Under the pieces are notes generated by a model, which had not been told where the DNA came from, ran no database searches, and saw nothing but the letters and a program-made list of their open reading frames with translations. A DNA stretch of 64,000 nucleotides, from NCBI GenBank assembly GCA_963700855.1, contig CAVOYV010000001.1, positions 853,881 to 917,880 of the forward strand. The letters run 5' to 3'. Both the position numbers and the translations under genes were made by a program. The DNA comes from an uncultured Actinomycetes bacterium (GTDB lineage: Bacteria > Actinomycetota > UBA4738 > HRBIN12). Position 1 is the stretch's first letter; every line of letters begins with the position of its first letter. Shown here piece after piece: positions 34,161 through 46,237 of this stretch.

Positions 34161-36545
34161 TCACCCTGCGCGCAGCGTCGCCGAGAGCTCCGACGCCAAT
34201 CGCTCCACGATCCGGTCCACCGCGATCTGCGCCTCCTCGTCCGTGAGGGTGCGGTCGGGGGCACGGAAATCGACCGCGAAGGCCAGGCTCTTCGTGCCCG
34301 GGGGCAGGGATCCGCCGCGGAACACGTCGAACAGCTCGCAGGCACCGAGCAGCTCTGCACCCGCCTCCTCGAGGGCGCGCTGGACGTCGCCGGCAGGGGT
34401 GTCCTCCGGGAGCACGAACGCGAGGTCGCGCCGAACCGGGGGGAACCGGGGCACATCGCGGAGCGCGACGATGCGCTCGGAGGCGGTGAGCAGCGATCCG
34501 AGGCCGACCACCACGACGGCGACCCGTCCCTCGATGTCGAGACCCTGGGTGACGCGAGGGTGGATCTCGCCCATGACGCCGACCGGACGGTCCTCCACCA
34601 GGACCTGGGCGGAACGCCCGGGATGGAACGGACCCTGCGGCACGTCGCCCAGCGACCAGCCGCTGACGCCGAGGTCGTGGAGCAGGGTCTCCAAGATCGC
34701 CTTCGCGTCGAGAGCGTCGAGGTCTCGGCGATCGGCCGCCCATCCGGTGCCGGCTGGCCCGCAGAGCACCGCACCGGCCTTGCGGAGCTGGACGAAGGGC
34801 TCCTCGTCGACGCCGAGCCGGAAGGTGGCCCCCACCTCGAACAGTGCCACTCGCTCGACCCCTGCGGCTTGGTTACGCGCGACCCCTCTCAGCAGACCGG
34901 GTGTCAGTCGCGTACGCAGGAATCCCTCTTCCGCCCGCAACGGGTTGGCGACCGGCACGGCGTCGGTATCCCCGAACATCGCGAGGTCCTCGGCCGAGAC
35001 GAACGGCGCCGGCCGGATCTCGCGCAGCCCCGCCCGACGCAGCGAGGCCTTCGCGCGCCGGGCGAACGCGTACTCTGGTGGCAGTCCCCCGGCATGGGGC
35101 GCACGCGGGAGGGTCGACCCGACGTGGTCGTATCCCTGGATCCGCACGACCTCCTCGATCAGGTCGACCTCGCGGTCGATGTCGGTGCGGTAGCTGGGAA
35201 CCTCGACCTCGATCACGTCGTCGTCGGTTCGGTGAACCATCCGGAGGGTCTCGAAGACCTCGACCGCCGCCGCCGTGTCGACCGGATAGCCGAGCAGCGC
35301 GCCGGCCCGGGATGCCCGCATCGACACGGAGCGCCGCGCGGGCGCGGCACCGGCCTCGGCGACACCCGCGAGGACGGTTCCGCCGCCCCACTCGACGATC
35401 AGCTTGGCGCACCGTGTCGCCGCGGGAACGACGCCCTCGGGATCGGTGCCGCGCTCGAACCGGTGGGAGGCCTCGGTGTGCAGGTCCAGGCGACGACCGG
35501 TCAGGAGGACCCCGCCACGCGTGAAGTAGGCGCTCTCGAGCAGGACGTTCGCGGTGTGCGAGGAGACCTCGGACGACCGCCCACCCATCACGCCTGCGAT
35601 CGCCACCGGCTTGTCGATGTCGCAGATCAGCAGGTCGTGGTCGGTGAGCACACGCTCGACGTCGTCGAGGGTCGTGAGTCGCTCTCCCTCGGTCGCCTCG
35701 CGGACGACGATGCCCGGTCCTGCCAGGCGGTCCATGTCGAACCCGTGCAGAGGCTGCCCCATCTCGAGCATCACGTAGTTCGTCGCATCGACGATCGCGT
35801 CGATCGGACGCATCCCCGCGGCGGTCAGCCGCGCCTGGACCCACAGCGGCGATGGACGGTGCGACACGCCCCGGATCACCCGAGCGACGTAGCGTGGGCA
35901 CGCCTCGGGGGCGTCGATCCGCACCGTGGCGACGTCGGCGGCGCGTTCGTCCGTCTCTGCGATGCGCAGATCCGGCTCGCCCAGTGGCACCCCGGTGGCG
36001 GCGGCGACCTCGCGGGCCACACCGTAGACGCTCAGGAAATCGGGGCGGTTGGGTTCGACCTCGATGTCGAGGACGGCGTCGCCGAGGCCCAGCGCCGACT
36101 TGAGATCGACCCCCACCCCGAGCCCCGTGTCGTTCAAGATCGCGATCCCGCCGTGATCCTGCGACACGCCGAGCTCACGCGGCGAGCAGAGCATCCCGTT
36201 CGACACGACGCCACGGATCTCGCGCGCCCCCAAGGGATCGGGCAGCGCGGGGACCCGCCCTCCGGGCGGCACCCACGACACGAGGTCTCCCGCGACCATG
36301 TTCCGCACGCCCACGACCAACTCGACCTCGCCGGAGCCGTGCTGGATCCGCGCGACGCACAGGGTGTCGGAGTCCGGGTGGTCGCGGACCTCGAGCACGC
36401 GCACGACGACCACGCCCTCGAGACCGTCCCATGGCCACTCGACCCCTTCGACCTTCACCCCACGCTTCGTCATCAGCTCCGCGAGGTCGTCGGCGCCCAT
36501 GTCGGTGGGCGCGTACTCACGCAGCCAGTGCAGCGGGACCCTCAC
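34161..36545 (-). CDS. pheT: phenylalanine--tRNA ligase beta subunit
   Basis: HPDSDTL, SNGMLCS, PNRPDFLS, VDATNYVMLEMGQPLHGFD, RFERG, RRDLAF. Confidence 0.97.
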   Translation of the reverse strand: MRVPLHWLREYAPTDMGADDLAELMTKRGVKVEGVEWPWDGLEGVVVVRVLEVRDHPDSDTLCVARIQHGSGEVELVVGVRNMVAGDLVSWVPPGGRVPALPDPLGAREIRGVVSNGMLCSPRELGVSQDHGGIAILNDTGLGVGVDLKSALGLGDAVLDIEVEPNRPDFLSVYGVAREVAAATGVPLGEPDLRIAETDERAADVATVRIDAPEACPRYVARVIRGVSHRPSPLWVQARLTAAGMRPIDAIVDATNYVMLEMGQPLHGFDMDRLAGPGIVVREATEGERLTTLDDVERVLTDHDLLICDIDKPVAIAGVMGGRSSEVSSHTANVLLESAYFTRGGVLLTGRRLDLHTEASHRFERGTDPEGVVPAATRCAKLIVEWGGGTVLAGVAEAGAAPARRSVSMRASRAGALLGYPVDTAAAVEVFETLRMVHRTDDDVIEVEVPSYRTDIDREVDLIEEVVRIQGYDHVGSTLPRAPHAGGLPPEYAFARRAKASLRRAGLREIRPAPFVSAEDLAMFGDTDAVPVANPLRAEEGFLRTRLTPGLLRGVARNQAAGVERVALFEVGATFRLGVDEEPFVQLRKAGAVLCGPAGTGWAADRRDLDALDAKAILETLLHDLGVSGWSLGDVPQGPFHPGRSAQVLVEDRPVGVMGEIHPRVTQGLDIEGRVAVVVVGLGSLLTASERIVALRDVPRFPPVRRDLAFVLPEDTPAGDVQRALEEAGAELLGACELFDVFRGGSLPPGTKSLAFAVDFRAPDRTLTDEEAQIAVDRIVERLASELSATLRAG

Positions 36546-37597
36546 GAGGCCGCCCCGAACTGCTCGAGGAACCGCACGTCGGTGTCGACGAGCATCCGCA
36601 TATCGGGGATCGAGTACTTCAGCAGGGCGATCCGCTCGATCCCCACGCCGAACGCGAAGCCCGTGTAACGCTCACTGTCGTACCCGCAGTTCTCCAAGAC
36701 CTGCGGGTGGACCATGCCGGCGCCGAGCAACTCGATCCAGCCGTTGCCGCAGACGCGGCATCCCACCCCGTCGCAGATGAAGCACGACACGCCCACCTCA
36801 GCCCCGGGCTCCACGAACGGGAAGTACGCCGGACCGAGACGGACCTTGCGGGTCTCACCGAACAACCCGCGGGCCATGGCCTCCAGCGTCCCCTTCAGAT
36901 CGGCGAACGTGATGCCCTCGTCGACCACGAGCCCCTCGACCTGATGGAACACGGCGAGGTGCGTGGCGTCGGGGCTCTCGCGCCGATAGACGCGCCCGGG
37001 GGCGATCACGTACACGGGGGGGGGCTGCGACTGCATCGTTCGGATCTGGACCGCGCTGGTCTCGGTCCGGAGCAGCAGCTCCGGGTGGCCGGGGATCGCC
37101 ACGTACAGCGAGTCTTTCATCGTGCGCGCCGGATGATCCGACGGGATGTTGAGCGCCTGGAAGTTGTGCCAGTCGTCCTCGATCTCCGGTCCTTCCGCCA
37201 CCCGGAACCCGAGGCGGGTGAAGACCTCGACCACCTCGTCCTCCACCAAGGTGAGCGGATGGAGCGATCCCTCGGGGAGGCGGCGGCCGGGCAGGCTCAG
37301 ATCGACCCGGTCGGCATCGAGCAGCAGGCCTTCGGCTTGGGCGCGGAGCGCGTCGCGGCGGGCTTCGAAGCCTTCCTGCAGGGTCGCCCGGACCTCGTTC
37401 GCGAGACGGCCCAGCTCACGCCGGTCATCCTCTGGGAGCCCTCCGAGGCTCCGTTGTACCTCGCTGAAGGCCGACTTCCGGCCGATCACCGCCACCTGCG
37501 CGGCCTCGAGATCGTCGAGCGTCGTGGCCGCGGCGGCGAGGGCCAGGCCCCGATCCCGTTCGGCATCGAGGGTGTGGCGCATCTCGGCGGCGTCCAT
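36542..37597 (-). CDS. pheS: phenylalanine--tRNA ligase alpha subunit
   Basis: GSLHP, NFQALN...HPAR, LRTETS, GRVYR, FHQVEG, YFPFVEP, GFAFGVGIER. ATG at 37597; TAGACT at 37606..37611. Confidence 0.97.
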   Translation of the reverse strand: MDAAEMRHTLDAERDRGLALAAAATTLDDLEAAQVAVIGRKSAFSEVQRSLGGLPEDDRRELGRLANEVRATLQEGFEARRDALRAQAEGLLLDADRVDLSLPGRRLPEGSLHPLTLVEDEVVEVFTRLGFRVAEGPEIEDDWHNFQALNIPSDHPARTMKDSLYVAIPGHPELLLRTETSAVQIRTMQSQPPPVYVIAPGRVYRRESPDATHLAVFHQVEGLVVDEGITFADLKGTLEAMARGLFGETRKVRLGPAYFPFVEPGAEVGVSCFICDGVGCRVCGNGWIELLGAGMVHPQVLENCGYDSERYTGFAFGVGIERIALLKYSIPDMRMLVDTDVRFLEQFGAAS

Positions 37598-37639
37598 GGT
37601 GGGCGAGTCTAGCAACCGGGTTTCGGCGCCCCTGCGCGC

Positions 37640-39061
37640 TCAGGCTGGCAAGGGCAGCTCGACGTGGAGCGATAGCTCGCCCCCGTGGACCTCGGCCCAC
37701 GCGCGCCCTCCCTGGGCTTCGGCGACGCCGCGTGCGACGTACAGACCGATCTTGCTCCCGCCCCCCTGACCGGGTCGGCGGGGACGGAAGAGACCCTCGG
37801 CCGCCTCGTCGTCGAGGTCGACGCCCGCCCGCGTGGCCACCAGGTGCACGGTGTCGTCCCGGCGTTCGGTGCGCACCTTGATCGAGCCCTCGGATCCCCA
37901 CCACACGAGGGTCTCAGCGAAGGACAGCACCATGGTCTTCATCCGTGTGGGGTCGAGGAAGAACGGCCCCGGATCTCCCTCCCACTCGATCGGAGGATGC
38001 TCCGGGTCGCGAGCCTGCATCTGCGCCAGCCCGGTCACCAGGTCGCCCAGGTCGGTCTGGTCGGGGAACAGGTCCAGCGCACCGGCCGCCACGCGCGCGG
38101 CGTCGACGAGCAGGCGGACGATCTGATCCATCCGATCGGCGTCGTGGACGATCCCACGGAGCATCAGTTCGCGCTGGTCGTCGGACATCTGCTCCCAGCG
38201 TCGTTCGAGCGCGTACCCGAACCCCTTCATCGCGGTGAGCGGCGATCGGATGTCGTGGGCGGCCGCGGCGATGAGATCCTCCAGCTCCGCGCCCCGACCG
38301 ACCCGGCGCCGCGCATGATCGAACAGGCAGACGGTGGCGGCGGCGGCTAGGTTCAACGATTCGGCGGCACCTTCGTGCGGCACACGCACGGTCACGTCGG
38401 CGAGCGACGCCACGTCCTGCGGGAGCCCGTGGGCCTCGTTCCCGAACACGAACGCCACGGGTCCGGACAGGTCGGTCGAGTACAGGCTCTCGGCGCCGTG
38501 CGCGTCCATGGCGAGGACCCGGTATCCGAGACCCCGCGCGTGCTCGATCGCTCCGGCGGCGTCGGCGTCCCGGACGATGGGCAGGTGGAACACGGACCCG
38601 GCAGACGCTCGCACCGTCTTCGTGTTGTAGACGTCGACCGAGGTCGCCGTGAAGACGACCCCGCTGCCTCCCGCGGCGTCCGACGACCTGAGCACGGTCC
38701 CGGCGTTCCCCGGGTCGCGGACCTCGTGCAGGATCGTCAGGCACCCCTCCGCGGGGAGCGCATCGAGCCCCACGTCGACGAACGGTGCGATCCCCAGCAG
38801 CCCTTGCGGGGTGACCGTGGAGGTCAGCTTCCGCATCAGGTCCTCGCCGACGTGGTGGACCTCCACGCCCGCCTGCGAGGCGCGGATCGCCCACTCGTCG
38901 AGCGGATCGACCACGAACAGGGTCTCGAGCCGCTCGGCGGCGAGCGCCTCGCCGACGCCCTGCGCTCCTTCGACCAAGAACCGACGGTCCCCCTCGCGGA
39001 AGGCTCGCTTCTTGAGACGGATGGCCGCGGCGACCCGCGGGTTCTTGAGGCTGGTCAGCAC
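37640..39061 (-). CDS. TrmH/SpoU RNA methyltransferase fused to a HisKA plus degenerate HATPase_c module
   Basis: SPOUT motifs RDPGNAGTVLR, FGNEAHGL and ESLNLA (about 38310..39061). These continue without a stop into AHDIRSPLTAMKG...LFRP...SKIGLYVARGVAEAQGG. Confidence 0.88.
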   Translation of the reverse strand: MLTSLKNPRVAAAIRLKKRAFREGDRRFLVEGAQGVGEALAAERLETLFVVDPLDEWAIRASQAGVEVHHVGEDLMRKLTSTVTPQGLLGIAPFVDVGLDALPAEGCLTILHEVRDPGNAGTVLRSSDAAGGSGVVFTATSVDVYNTKTVRASAGSVFHLPIVRDADAAGAIEHARGLGYRVLAMDAHGAESLYSTDLSGPVAFVFGNEAHGLPQDVASLADVTVRVPHEGAAESLNLAAAATVCLFDHARRRVGRGAELEDLIAAAAHDIRSPLTAMKGFGYALERRWEQMSDDQRELMLRGIVHDADRMDQIVRLLVDAARVAAGALDLFPDQTDLGDLVTGLAQMQARDPEHPPIEWEGDPGPFFLDPTRMKTMVLSFAETLVWWGSEGSIKVRTERRDDTVHLVATRAGVDLDDEAAEGLFRPRRPGQGGGSKIGLYVARGVAEAQGGRAWAEVHGGELSLHVELPLPA

Positions 39062-39134: not shown

Positions 39135-39497
39135 TCAGGCCGCAGCCGAGGCGGACTTCACCGTCTCAACGAGCGATGCGAAGGCCTTTGGGTCGTTCAC
39201 GGCGAGGTCGGCGAGGATCTTGCGGTCGACCTCGATGCCGGACGTCTTGAGGCCGTTGATGAACCGCGAGTACGAGATGCCGTTCGTCCGGCATGCGGCG
39301 TTGATCCGGGCGATCCACAGCCGGCGGAACTGCGCCTTGCGGTCTCGCCGATCGCGGTAGGCATAGACGCCGGAGTGCTGGACCTGCTCCTTCGCGGCGC
39401 GGTACCGGATCCGGCGGGAGCCGGTGTAGCCCTTCGCCGCCTCGAGCACCTCGCGGCGCTTCTTCTTCGCGTGGACGGAACGCTTCACTCGGGCCAT
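39135..39497 (-). CDS. rplT: 50S ribosomal protein L20
   Basis: MARVKRSV...AKGY...YAYRDRR...[12 protein letters not shown]...YSRFI. Confidence 0.98.
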
Positions 39498-39501
39498 CGG
39501 G

Positions 39502-39699
39502 TCACCTCGCCAACAATCGCTTGATCTTCTTCTGCTCACCCGTCGAGGCGACCTCGGCCATGCCCTCGACACGACGGCGGCGGCTCCCGCTCTTCTTCGT
39601 GAGCATGTGGTTGCCGGTGGCCTTCCGGTGGATCACCTTCCCACGACGCGTCACGCGGAAGCGCTTGGCGGAGGAGCTGTGGGTCTTCATCTTGGGCAT
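39502..39699 (-). CDS. rpmI: 50S ribosomal protein L35
   Basis: [17 protein letters not shown]...HMLTKK. Confidence 0.97.
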
Positions 39700-44648: not shown

Positions 44649-45578
44649 CTACTCGGCGCGACGGTCGACGGCGAAACTCGAGCCGGGCTCGCGCTTCGCG
44701 AAGGACTTCATCTCGGTCGCGACGGCGACCGCCTCGCCGTAGTGGGCGAACCGGCGCTTCGAGGTCATCGCGATGCCGACCGAGATGGCGACGAGGGGAA
44801 CATCCTGCAGGACGCCCTTGCGGTCCTCGACACGGACGAAGCCGCGCTCGAGGTCCTCGGCCTCGTAGAAGTCCACGCGGCCCTCGTCGAAACGCTCGCA
44901 GATCCGCTTCGCGACGTCCTCGGCGACGTCGGGGCCAACCACCGCGACGAAGTCGTCGCCGCCGACGTGGCCGATGAAGCCCTCGCTGCCGGCTCCCTCG
45001 ATCACCGCGTCCTGGATGATCCGCGCGGTGGCCTGGATCAAGCGGTCCCCGCGGACGAACCCCTTCTGGTCGTTGTAGGCCTTGAAGTTGTCGAGGTCGG
45101 CATAGAGGACGGCGAACTCGTGCTGCTCTCGGACCTGGCGCTCGATCTCCTCCTGGATCCGGATGTTGCCGGGCAGGCCCGTAAGCGGCGAGAGGTTCCG
45201 CATCTCCTTCGCGCGCCGCAACGTGCCCTTCACCCGTGCGAGCAGCTCGATCGGATCGAACGGCTTGATGATGTAGTCGTCGGCGCCGGACTGCAGGCCC
45301 GTCACCTTGTCGGCCGACAGGGCCTTCGCGGTCAGCATGATGATGCTCGTGTTCGCGGTGGTCGGGTTCTTCCGCAGGCGTTGGGCGACCTCGAAGCCAT
45401 CGATGCGCGGCATCATCACGTCGAGCAGGACCAGGTCGGGGCGAAGCTCGCCAGCCCTGTCGAGCGCCTCCTGTCCGTCGCCGGCGACCGCGACGTCGTA
45501 CCCGGCCGAGCGGAGGTTGACCTCGACGAAGCGAGCGATGTCCGGATCGTCGTCGACGACGAGGATCGTCTCGGGCAT
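44649..45578 (-). CDS. response regulator receiver plus GGDEF-family (GGDDF) diguanylate cyclase-like protein
   Basis: REC: ILVVDDD, DVMMP, MLTA, KPF. Then SPLTGLPGN, DLDNFKAYND and GHVGGDDF. The ATG overlaps the rpe stop. Confidence 0.92.
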   Translation of the reverse strand: MPETILVVDDDPDIARFVEVNLRSAGYDVAVAGDGQEALDRAGELRPDLVLLDVMMPRIDGFEVAQRLRKNPTTANTSIIMLTAKALSADKVTGLQSGADDYIIKPFDPIELLARVKGTLRRAKEMRNLSPLTGLPGNIRIQEEIERQVREQHEFAVLYADLDNFKAYNDQKGFVRGDRLIQATARIIQDAVIEGAGSEGFIGHVGGDDFVAVVGPDVAEDVAKRICERFDEGRVDFYEAEDLERGFVRVEDRKGVLQDVPLVAISVGIAMTSKRRFAHYGEAVAVATEMKSFAKREPGSSFAVDRRAE

Positions 45579-46237
45579 CAGCGAGCCTCCGCCGCGACCG
45601 CGGCGATCGCCCGTGCCGCGCCCACGGGGTCGGGCTGACGGAAGACGCCGCTGCCCGAGATCAGGATCGTGGCACCGGCATCGACCGCGCGTTTCGCGTT
45701 GTCGATCTTGATGCCCCCGTCGATCTCGACGTCCACCGAGAGACCGCGTCGATCGATCTCCGCGCGGATCACCTCGGTACGTCCCCAGACCTCCGGGTTC
45801 AGGACCTGGCCGCCCCATCCCGGGGGGATGCTCATCAGCATCACGTCGTCGATCTCCTCGAGGTACGGGACGACGTCCTCGATCGGCGTCTCCATGTTGA
45901 GGGTGAGCCCGACCCCCAAGCCAACGCCCCGCGCCTTCCGGATCGCCGGCTCCGGCTCGGGGACCGCCTCCAGGTGGAACGAGATCATGTCGAGACCGGC
46001 GTCACGGAGCTGCTCGAACTGCTGCTCGGGCGCGTCGACCATGAGGTGACCGTGGAGCGTCCGCTCGGTCACGGGGCGCAACGATCCCACGACGACGGCC
46101 CCGAAGGAGATCGGGGGTGCGAAGTGCCCGTCCATGACGTCCACATGGAAGACTTCGGCGAAGGGCTCGACGAGCTTGACCTGCTCGCCCAGCCTGGCGA
46201 AGTCGGCGGCGAGGATCGAGGCGGACAGCTTCCCCAT
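45578..46237 (-). CDS. rpe: ribulose-phosphate 3-epimerase
   Basis: SILAADF, HVDVMDGHF, HLM, MSIPPGWGGQ, EIDGGI. Confidence 0.95.
   Translation of the reverse strand: MGKLSASILAADFARLGEQVKLVEPFAEVFHVDVMDGHFAPPISFGAVVVGSLRPVTERTLHGHLMVDAPEQQFEQLRDAGLDMISFHLEAVPEPEPAIRKARGVGLGVGLTLNMETPIEDVVPYLEEIDDVMLMSIPPGWGGQVLNPEVWGRTEVIRAEIDRRGLSVDVEIDGGIKIDNAKRAVDAGATILISGSGVFRQPDPVGAARAIAAVAAEAR

Follow-up and report, generated by a model that had tools for sequence, protein, structure and literature searches.

A SPOUT RNA methyltransferase fused to a histidine kinase-like module without canonical ATP-binding residues in a class of uncultured soil actinobacteria

What can a histidine kinase-like module do once the residues that hold its ATP have been replaced, and how did one come to be joined to an RNA methyltransferase? 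Both questions are raised by a single gene in a 64,000-nt stretch of DNA from an uncultured actinobacterium (the stretch is called the window here; the genome that holds it is G000, with C1 and C6 among its contigs). The gene lies just upstream of pheS, and its product joins a SPOUT (SpoU/TrmH-type) methyltransferase to the two domains of a histidine kinase transmitter, the dimerization and histidine phosphotransfer (DHp) domain and the catalytic and ATP-binding (CA) domain. The comparisons below make it likely that this protein is not a canonical autokinase. They also favor, with moderate confidence, a non-autokinase module for phosphatase or phosphotransfer chemistry, with the methyltransferase in the position of a sensor. 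A preliminary description made from the DNA alone had arrived at a phosphotransfer, phosphatase or pseudokinase module and had called it ChpT-like. The first of these is supported here: the ATP-Mg residues are replaced across the class, the replacement appears to have a single origin, and no part of the protein is under stronger constraint than the DHp domain with its H269-D270 pair. The second needs qualification, as discussed at the end.

An intact methyltransferase and a kinase-like half without the usual ATP contacts

In GHKL kinases ATP-Mg is held by a small set of residues that includes the N-box Asn, the G1 Asp and the central Gly of the G2 box. A residue-level alignment to HK853, to the syntenic orthologues of the kinase OhkA considered below and to other canonical relatives finds all of these replaced. 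The first N-box Asn corresponds to S380 and the Mg-binding Asn to T384; the basic/aromatic pair following the N-box Asn (Lys/Arg, Tyr/His) is W387-W388; the G1 Asp is R411 (T410-R411-A-G-V), with no DxGxG; and the GTGLGL of G2 is GSKIGL, with K437 for the central Gly. The ATP lid is about six residues shorter yet strongly conserved. The phospho-acceptor H269 is present and is followed by an acidic residue, D270, as in class I histidine kinases. The motifs listed in the preliminary description (H-box HDIRSP with its His codon, an N-box without Asn, VATRAGVD at G1 and GSKIGL at G2) were all recovered in the translated open reading frame (ORF) and placed by the alignment. Its statement that only the F-box and the overall fold remain was right about the F-box (LF, residues 424-425) but too narrow, since the lid/G2 loop, R428-x-P-G-x-G-x-G-S-K-x-G-L, also survives and is nearly invariant. 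The other 13 HisKA kinases of G000 serve as an internal control: every one of them keeps the N-box Asn, the DxGxG of G1 and the GxGxGL of G2. The HATPase_c profile gives the same picture: it scores 26.6 bits against a cut-off of 26.4, in a match that begins only at profile position 15, past the N-box, whereas Streptomyces OhkA reaches 105 bits, a sensor-less OhkA 102 and a fused but intact relative 90.

Structure prediction, which had been proposed as a check, places the C-terminal half in the HK853 fold. The AlphaFold2 model, built from a 115-sequence alignment, has a mean predicted local distance difference test (pLDDT) score of 90.2, with DHp helices at residues 257-291 and 294-326, an alpha/beta CA-like domain, and a loop at 424-438. 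In Foldseek comparisons this half is closer to HK853 in its complexes with RR468 (template modeling, or TM, score 0.74-0.76) than to free HK853 (0.60). Only a short hinge separates the last SPOUT helix (236-253) from DHp helix 1 (257-291), and its G257 is kept in 88% of homologs.

The altered pocket is shared by many relatives. A search of a 5.8-billion-protein collection with the C-terminal 219 residues returned more than 1000 matches. Nearly all of the top 120 are 471-488 aa long, with SpoU+HisKA architecture and 64-100% identity; most come from "Actinomycetota bacterium" metagenome-assembled genomes (MAGs) and are annotated just as "TrmH family RNA methyltransferase." Among 108 close homologs, H269 is invariant, as are the H-box and much of the DHp domain in full-length members, including the stretches AAAAHDIRSPLTAMKGFG and DADRMD..LVDAAR. 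W387, R411, R428, G431, G433, G435, K437 and G439 are also invariant in this set; P430 and S436 are conserved in 99% and E383 and W388 in 97-98%. The position of the lost Mg-binding Asn, on the other hand, is free to vary among S, A and T, with Ala in 37 of the 108. The CA-like domain opens with an RDPEHP motif that only the degenerate clade conserves; neither the OhkA orthologues nor HK853 have an equivalent. Pairwise ratios of nonsynonymous to synonymous substitution (dN/dS), computed from codon alignments, are lowest in the DHp domain (0.04-0.17) and similar in the methyltransferase (0.10-0.28) and CA-like (0.11-0.33, with one distant pair at 0.58) domains. Since the substitute residues are conserved in 108 homologs and dN/dS is on par with that of the methyltransferase, the CA-like domain is maintained rather than decaying. 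This pattern of purifying selection suggests that it is not simply dead and has some retained or new role.

The N-terminal half is predicted to be a bona fide rRNA 2'-O-methyltransferase of the RlmR/RlmP/MRM3 group, with an L30e-like domain followed by a SPOUT domain. The SPOUT motifs RDPGNAG, GNE..G and SLN are intact, and an alignment of 115 sequences shows no variation at R115, D116, P117, G118, N119, G121, R125, G207, N208, E209, G212, S235, L236 or N237. Foldseek matches this half to SPOUT rRNA methyltransferase structures at TM 0.82-0.87 and 29-36% identity, the closest being 5kzk (a TrmH-family protein of S. meliloti), RlmR of T. thermophilus (9h1k/4x3m), RrmA (1ipa), YsgA/RlmP (7qiu) and MRM3, with AviRb among the matches as well; phmmer E-values to characterized members range from 5e-33 to 6e-27. 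RlmR, RlmP and MRM3 are 2'-O-methyltransferases of the 23S rRNA A-loop, RlmR of T. thermophilus making Um2552 and RlmP/YsgA of B. subtilis Gm2553 (PMC12123411, PMC9380741). The two-domain architecture is the same in RlmR, RlmP and MRM3, but none of the characterized members is known to have the C-terminal DHp/CA extension of the fusion.

The fusion is close to universal in the class to which the window belongs, a group of uncultured soil actinobacteria sampled here as 151 genomes from 56 genera in eight families. Exactly one copy was found in 138 of the 151 (E <= 1e-25), and all 16 genes fetched from families f2, f3, f5, f6, f7 and f8 are single fused frames. Ten of these 16 are in the motif alignment, and all ten have the His, lack the N-box Asn and have Arg at the G1 Asp position. 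The other six, all from f8, were dropped from that alignment by its H-box pattern, so that their ATP boxes were not read; they read VHD(L/M/V)R(L/V)PLT at the H-box, except for one whose sequence stretch ends before it. The lid/G2 loop is nearly invariant in f1, f2, f3, f6 and f7, while the f5 and f8 members read no longer have the GSK loop but still have the His.

In several genomes the gene is broken into two or three frames: L002 (G014:C1), G011:C1:509479-510130, G021:C9:92592-93240 and G163:C1:474380-475016. These are MAGs of few contigs, probably from long reads, and the breaks are probably indel errors rather than pseudogenization. Such breaks might be taken to hint that the fusion itself is an artefact, an assembly chimera or a frameshifted gene pair in one MAG. 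This explanation is ruled out, because well over 100 independent genomes, along with hundreds of metagenome proteins, show one unbroken frame of 480-540 aa. Three genomes of one genus in the same family (G057, G112 and G117 of g25; 1.3-1.6 Mb) have neither the fusion nor OrrA, the regulator discussed below. With only 2-8 kinase candidates each, they have lost nearly all of their two-component genes, so the joint loss is not specific evidence for a link between the two.

Table 1. Position of the fusion gene, its domains and motifs, and nearby genes in the window. Residue numbers refer to the fusion protein.
Feature	Residues	Window position	Strand	Basis or remark
Whole fusion ORF, GTG start	473 aa + stop	37640..39061	-	L30e-like, SPOUT, DHp and CA-like domains, in that order
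MRM3-like / SpoU_sub_bind (L30e-like) RNA-binding N-terminal domain	7-90	38792..39043	-	PF22435 50.3 bits, PF08032 25.7 bits
SPOUT (SpoU/TrmH) 2'-O-methyltransferase catalytic domain	110-247	38321..38734	-	PF00588 SpoU_methylase 119.9 bits
Fusion junction, short Gly-containing hinge (VGRG), about 3 residues	254-257	38291..38302	-	DSSP; pLDDT dip 61-75
DHp (HisKA) helical hairpin	257-327	38081..38293	-	PF00512 39.9 bits (match 260-326)
Phospho-acceptor His codon	269	38255..38257	-	Inside AAAAHDIRSPLT, H-box HDIRSP
RDPEHP motif, start of CA-like domain	351-356	37994..38011	-	Conservation
CA-like (Bergerat-fold) domain without canonical ATP-binding residues	334-473	37643..38062	-	HATPase_c match 383-472
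N-box remnant MVLSFAETLVWW	377-388	37898..37933	-	Both Asn gone; E383, W387, W388 conserved
G1-box remnant VATRAGVD	408-415	37817..37840	-	R411 in place of adenine-binding Asp
F-box, shortened lid and G2 remnant LFRPRRPGQGGGSKIGL	424-440	37742..37792	-	K437 in place of central G2 Gly; GSKIGL at 435-440
rplT, with infC-rpmI upstream		39135..39572	-	Neighbor
pheS		36542..37615	-	Neighbor
pheT		34161..36545	-	Neighbor
Response regulator with receiver and GGDEF-type domain (reads GGDDF)		44649-45818	-	Between ribD and rpe

The last entry lies about 6 kb away from the fusion gene, whose neighborhood contains no other receiver gene.

Origin from a neighboring kinase

The position of the gene points to where its second half came from. 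A locus scan restricted to one genome per species returned 80 loci, 16 of them with fused genes like that of the window. About 60 have instead a separate trmH (270-285 aa) followed, after a gap of tens to hundreds of bases, by a PAS-HisKA-HATPase_c kinase (360-375 aa) and then pheS-pheT, giving the order rplT - trmH - kinase - pheS. This unfused arrangement, shown directly in locus L072, occurs in Streptomyces, Nonomuraea, Streptosporangium, Actinomadura, Nocardiopsis, a Mycobacteriales MAG and others, and its kinases have intact boxes (NLxENAxRHG, DxGxGI, GGTGLGL). The S. coelicolor kinase at this position we take to be SCO1596, which presumably lies between the methylase gene and pheS. SCO1596 encodes the orphan kinase OhkA, which regulates antibiotic production and development and is reported to have as its partner an orphan response regulator, OrrA (SCO3008; PMC9739842).

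A maximum-likelihood tree of 59 transmitter domains, 12 of them from other G000 kinases, unites the fused proteins, the syntenic OhkA orthologues and the sensor-less forms described below in one clade (support 100/99) that leaves out all 12. Within it the 25 degenerate fused sequences form a single clade (100/100), and the stem that leads to them is very long, at 1.07 substitutions per site. One degenerate clade on so long a stem indicates that the ATP boxes were probably lost once and that a burst of change followed.

Forms that look intermediate are also found. Intact, sensor-less OhkA proteins of about 225-240 aa begin 15-30 nt past the trmH stop in L026, L068 (a Nocardioides MAG) and L110. 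A 505-aa fused protein (P0172, locus L106) has intact N and G2 boxes and an HATPase_c score of 90 bits; it lies in an infC-rpmI-rplT-X-pheS-pheT locus, X being its own gene, on a 66-kb metagenome contig, and is so far the only documented example of the fused, intact form. Family f14 was considered as a second lineage of this kind and rejected: its long frames turned out to be a GC artefact, and in L107-L109 trmH and the PAS-kinase are two distinct genes. In three of the four loci with a sensor-less OhkA beside trmH (L026:3931-3948, L068:6664-6700 and L110, G224:C14, 883-885) trmH and the kinase share a frame, with one stop codon between them, a proportion that with n=4 is not significant (p about 0.11). 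Recent fusion or fission, or stop-codon read-through, might have left this trace. Two members of family f16, L111 (G173:C6) and L113 (G294:C1), encode sensor-less kinases that resemble OhkA and are about 240-250 aa long; the roughly 1.7 kb of upstream sequence fetched contained no trmH, so the sensor-less form seems to occur away from trmH as well.

The fusion thus resembles OhkA in clade, in position after trmH (there as a separate gene) and before pheS, in the retention of an OrrA orthologue, and in a common DHp signature, H[DE][IL]RSPLT..KGF...W....D[DE]Q. It differs in having a covalently attached methyltransferase in place of the PAS sensor, in its replaced N, G1 and G2 boxes, in its long branch and in its failure to be the reciprocal best BLAST match of OhkA. 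The forms found can be arranged as a series, from PAS-OhkA beside trmH, through sensor-less OhkA and a fused, intact protein, to a fused protein with replaced ATP boxes and finally one in which the lid has decayed too. Such a series amounts to a natural experiment in which a bifunctional kinase turns into a pseudo-kinase while its DHp domain stays under the strongest constraint.

A partner, a phosphoryl source and the alternatives

If the module still exchanges phosphoryl groups, OrrA is the obvious candidate partner. Streptomyces OrrA was located by its position, since the 13 kb downstream of mtrB-lpqB contain no other receiver gene, and this agrees with the placement given in bioRxiv 10.64898/2026.01.30.702861. 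Its orthologue in G000, a NarL/GerE-type regulator at C1:226764-227417, is 73% identical (327 bits, against 163 for the next regulator), retains every phospho-acceptor residue and has an essentially unchanged alpha-1. The surroundings, comF-hpf-orrA...secA, are also common to the two genomes; hpf encodes a ribosome hibernation factor. OrrA is single-copy in 143 of the 151 class genomes, at 66-98% identity, and no other OhkA-clade kinase was found in G000 by the genome kinase survey or in the tree.

The history favored here runs as follows. Two proteins that are neighbors in other Actinomycetota, a SPOUT methyltransferase of the A-loop group and an OhkA without its PAS sensor, became fused, and in the ancestor of the class the CA domain lost all canonical ATP-Mg contacts, probably in one event, to be kept afterwards by purifying selection as a pseudo-CA domain. 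The module would then not autophosphorylate by the normal GHKL mechanism, and the DHp domain with its His269-Asp270 pair would most likely still exchange phosphoryl groups with OrrA, as a phosphatase, as a His phosphotransfer protein or phospho-sink, or as both. More speculatively, since the dimeric methyltransferase sits where a kinase has its sensor, its binding of rRNA or a 50S precursor, or its occupancy by S-adenosylmethionine or S-adenosylhomocysteine (SAM/SAH), would set the state of the DHp domain. Gating of this kind would couple ribosome maturation to OrrA-dependent transcription.

Several observations weigh against this history or parts of it. The best BLAST match of Streptomyces OhkA in G000 is not the fusion (88 bits) but another kinase (C6:106902-107579, 141 bits). 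Reciprocal best matching therefore fails as an orthology test, and the assignment to OhkA rests on synteny and the tree; the failure is attributed to the long branch. (The competing gene, C6:106143-107597 on the + strand, encodes an ordinary paired kinase with 39% identity to Streptomyces OhkA and a receiver gene at C6:107603-107929, which illustrates the divergence of the fused module.) The HK853-type specificity positions are only partly conserved relative to OhkA, with S->A, G, F and T->A in helix 1 and T->G and A->H in helix 2. Given these helix-2 differences and the BLAST result, continued pairing of the fusion with OrrA is rated as plausible from the sequences compared. The passages on this pair in a review describe OhkA-OrrA pairing in Streptomyces from genetics and two-hybrid data, not phosphotransfer (PMC9739842). 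The source of phosphate is a further difficulty. G000 has neither AckA nor Pta, and 27 of 31 relatives are without AckA, which weakens the idea that OrrA is charged by acetyl phosphate with the fusion merely as its phosphatase; another kinase must then be postulated. A ChpT-like shuttle in a phosphorelay that lacks its own histidine phosphotransfer (Hpt) domain is likewise unsupported: the sole hybrid kinase of G000 has two receivers and its own Hpt domain, leaving no obvious orphan relay. Finally, K437 and R428 belong to a Gly-rich loop that hardly varies and that may have been re-tooled to bind phosphate or another ligand. The phosphate on OrrA would come either from another kinase or from a phosphodonor that the altered pocket uses in a new way.

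The latter would make the protein a non-canonical kinase after all, in which E383, R411, R428, K437 and the PGxGxGSKxGL loop bind ATP or another phosphodonor and H269 is autophosphorylated. The loop and the substitute residues show almost no variation in five of the seven class families whose motif states were read, which fits this possibility, as do the conservation of a phosphorylatable OrrA, the lack of any other OhkA-clade kinase in G000 to charge it and the missing acetyl-phosphate pathway. On the other side, the Mg-binding Asn and the adenine-binding Asp are, to our knowledge, universal in GHKL ATPases; the Asn position now varies freely; the f5 and f8 members keep both the His and the fusion without the GSK loop; and HATPase_c falls from about 100 bits to 23-27 bits. 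A new kinase mechanism is accordingly judged improbable. A role without phosphoryl chemistry is also unlikely. Since SPOUT enzymes work as dimers and the DHp domain is a dimerization module, the C-terminal half might just dimerize, position or stabilize the methyltransferase, or bind rRNA or the ribosome, and scaffolding or allosteric roles have been proposed for CA domains of the PhyK type (PMC5964349). A pure scaffold would not need the H-D-x-R-S-P-L-T box, yet it is kept in every degenerate member read, including those with decayed lids, and the DHp domain, which carries it, is the slowest-evolving part of the protein. Unfused TrmH orthologues, moreover, function without any such half.

Pseudo-kinases can also act on kinases, as RetS does on GacS. 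By heterodimerizing with one of the 13 other HisKA kinases of G000, or by draining phosphate from it, the fusion could be an inhibitor of this type rather than a partner of a response regulator. There is no OhkA-clade paralogue in G000 for it to pair with, and the class conserves OrrA and the fusion as a one-to-one pair, which makes this very unlikely. A phosphotransfer, phosphatase or pseudokinase module that is not a canonical autokinase remains the best reading, because the ATP-Mg residues are all replaced, class-wide and apparently by a single event, in a protein whose DHp domain is under the strongest constraint.

A broader proposal follows the logic of the Rosetta stone, and is tentative enough to be called doubtful. 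The methyltransferase encoded beside ohkA might be the physiological input of OhkA-OrrA throughout the Actinomycetota, Streptomyces included, so that the pathway would report 50S maturation and A-loop methylation, or SAM status, to OrrA and through it to the wblA developmental and antibiotic regulon. In the class considered here, a kinase-dead, methyltransferase-gated DHp domain would control the level of OrrA~P, and the CA pocket (W387/W388, R411, K437 and RDPEHP) may bind a new ligand. Both ends of the pathway point to the ribosome: a predicted 23S rRNA methyltransferase is the neighbor or covalent partner of OhkA, and the OrrA gene adjoins hpf. The fusion is in this sense a testable lead on what OhkA senses in Streptomyces and, if the speculative gating is true, it links a known developmental signaling pathway to the ribosome.

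Comparison with other ATP-blind kinase-like proteins

The likeness to ChpT of Caulobacter and Brucella, and to Spo0B, is one of design: a dimerizing hairpin with a phospho-His is followed by a CA-like domain without ATP-binding determinants. ChpT neither autophosphorylates nor binds ATP (PMC3433190). As a statement of family or descent the comparison does not hold. The match to the ChpT profile PF10090 falls short of its cut-off (13.3 bits, with 22.9 required), so membership was rejected. The ChpT lid is replaced by helical turns, whereas the fusion keeps a short, conserved Gly-rich loop; the fusion is joined to an RNA methyltransferase; and no Hpt-less hybrid kinase is evident in G000. With an ordinary HisKA kinase, OhkA, as its source, the module reached the ChpT-like design independently, an analogy rather than a homology.

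PhyK, PhyP and LovK of the Alphaproteobacteria offer a second parallel, as histidine kinase architectures used as phosphotransferases or phosphatases without autokinase activity (PMC5964349). They belong to another kinase family and another lineage, keep membrane or PAS inputs, and none is known to be joined to an enzyme acting on RNA. A literature search found no description of a SpoU-histidine kinase fusion. ATP-blind kinase-like modules as such are already known from ChpT, Spo0B and PhyK/PhyP; what appears to be new is the fusion of one to an RNA-modifying enzyme. None of these known proteins has so clear a step-by-step origin as the series from OhkA to the fusion described here.

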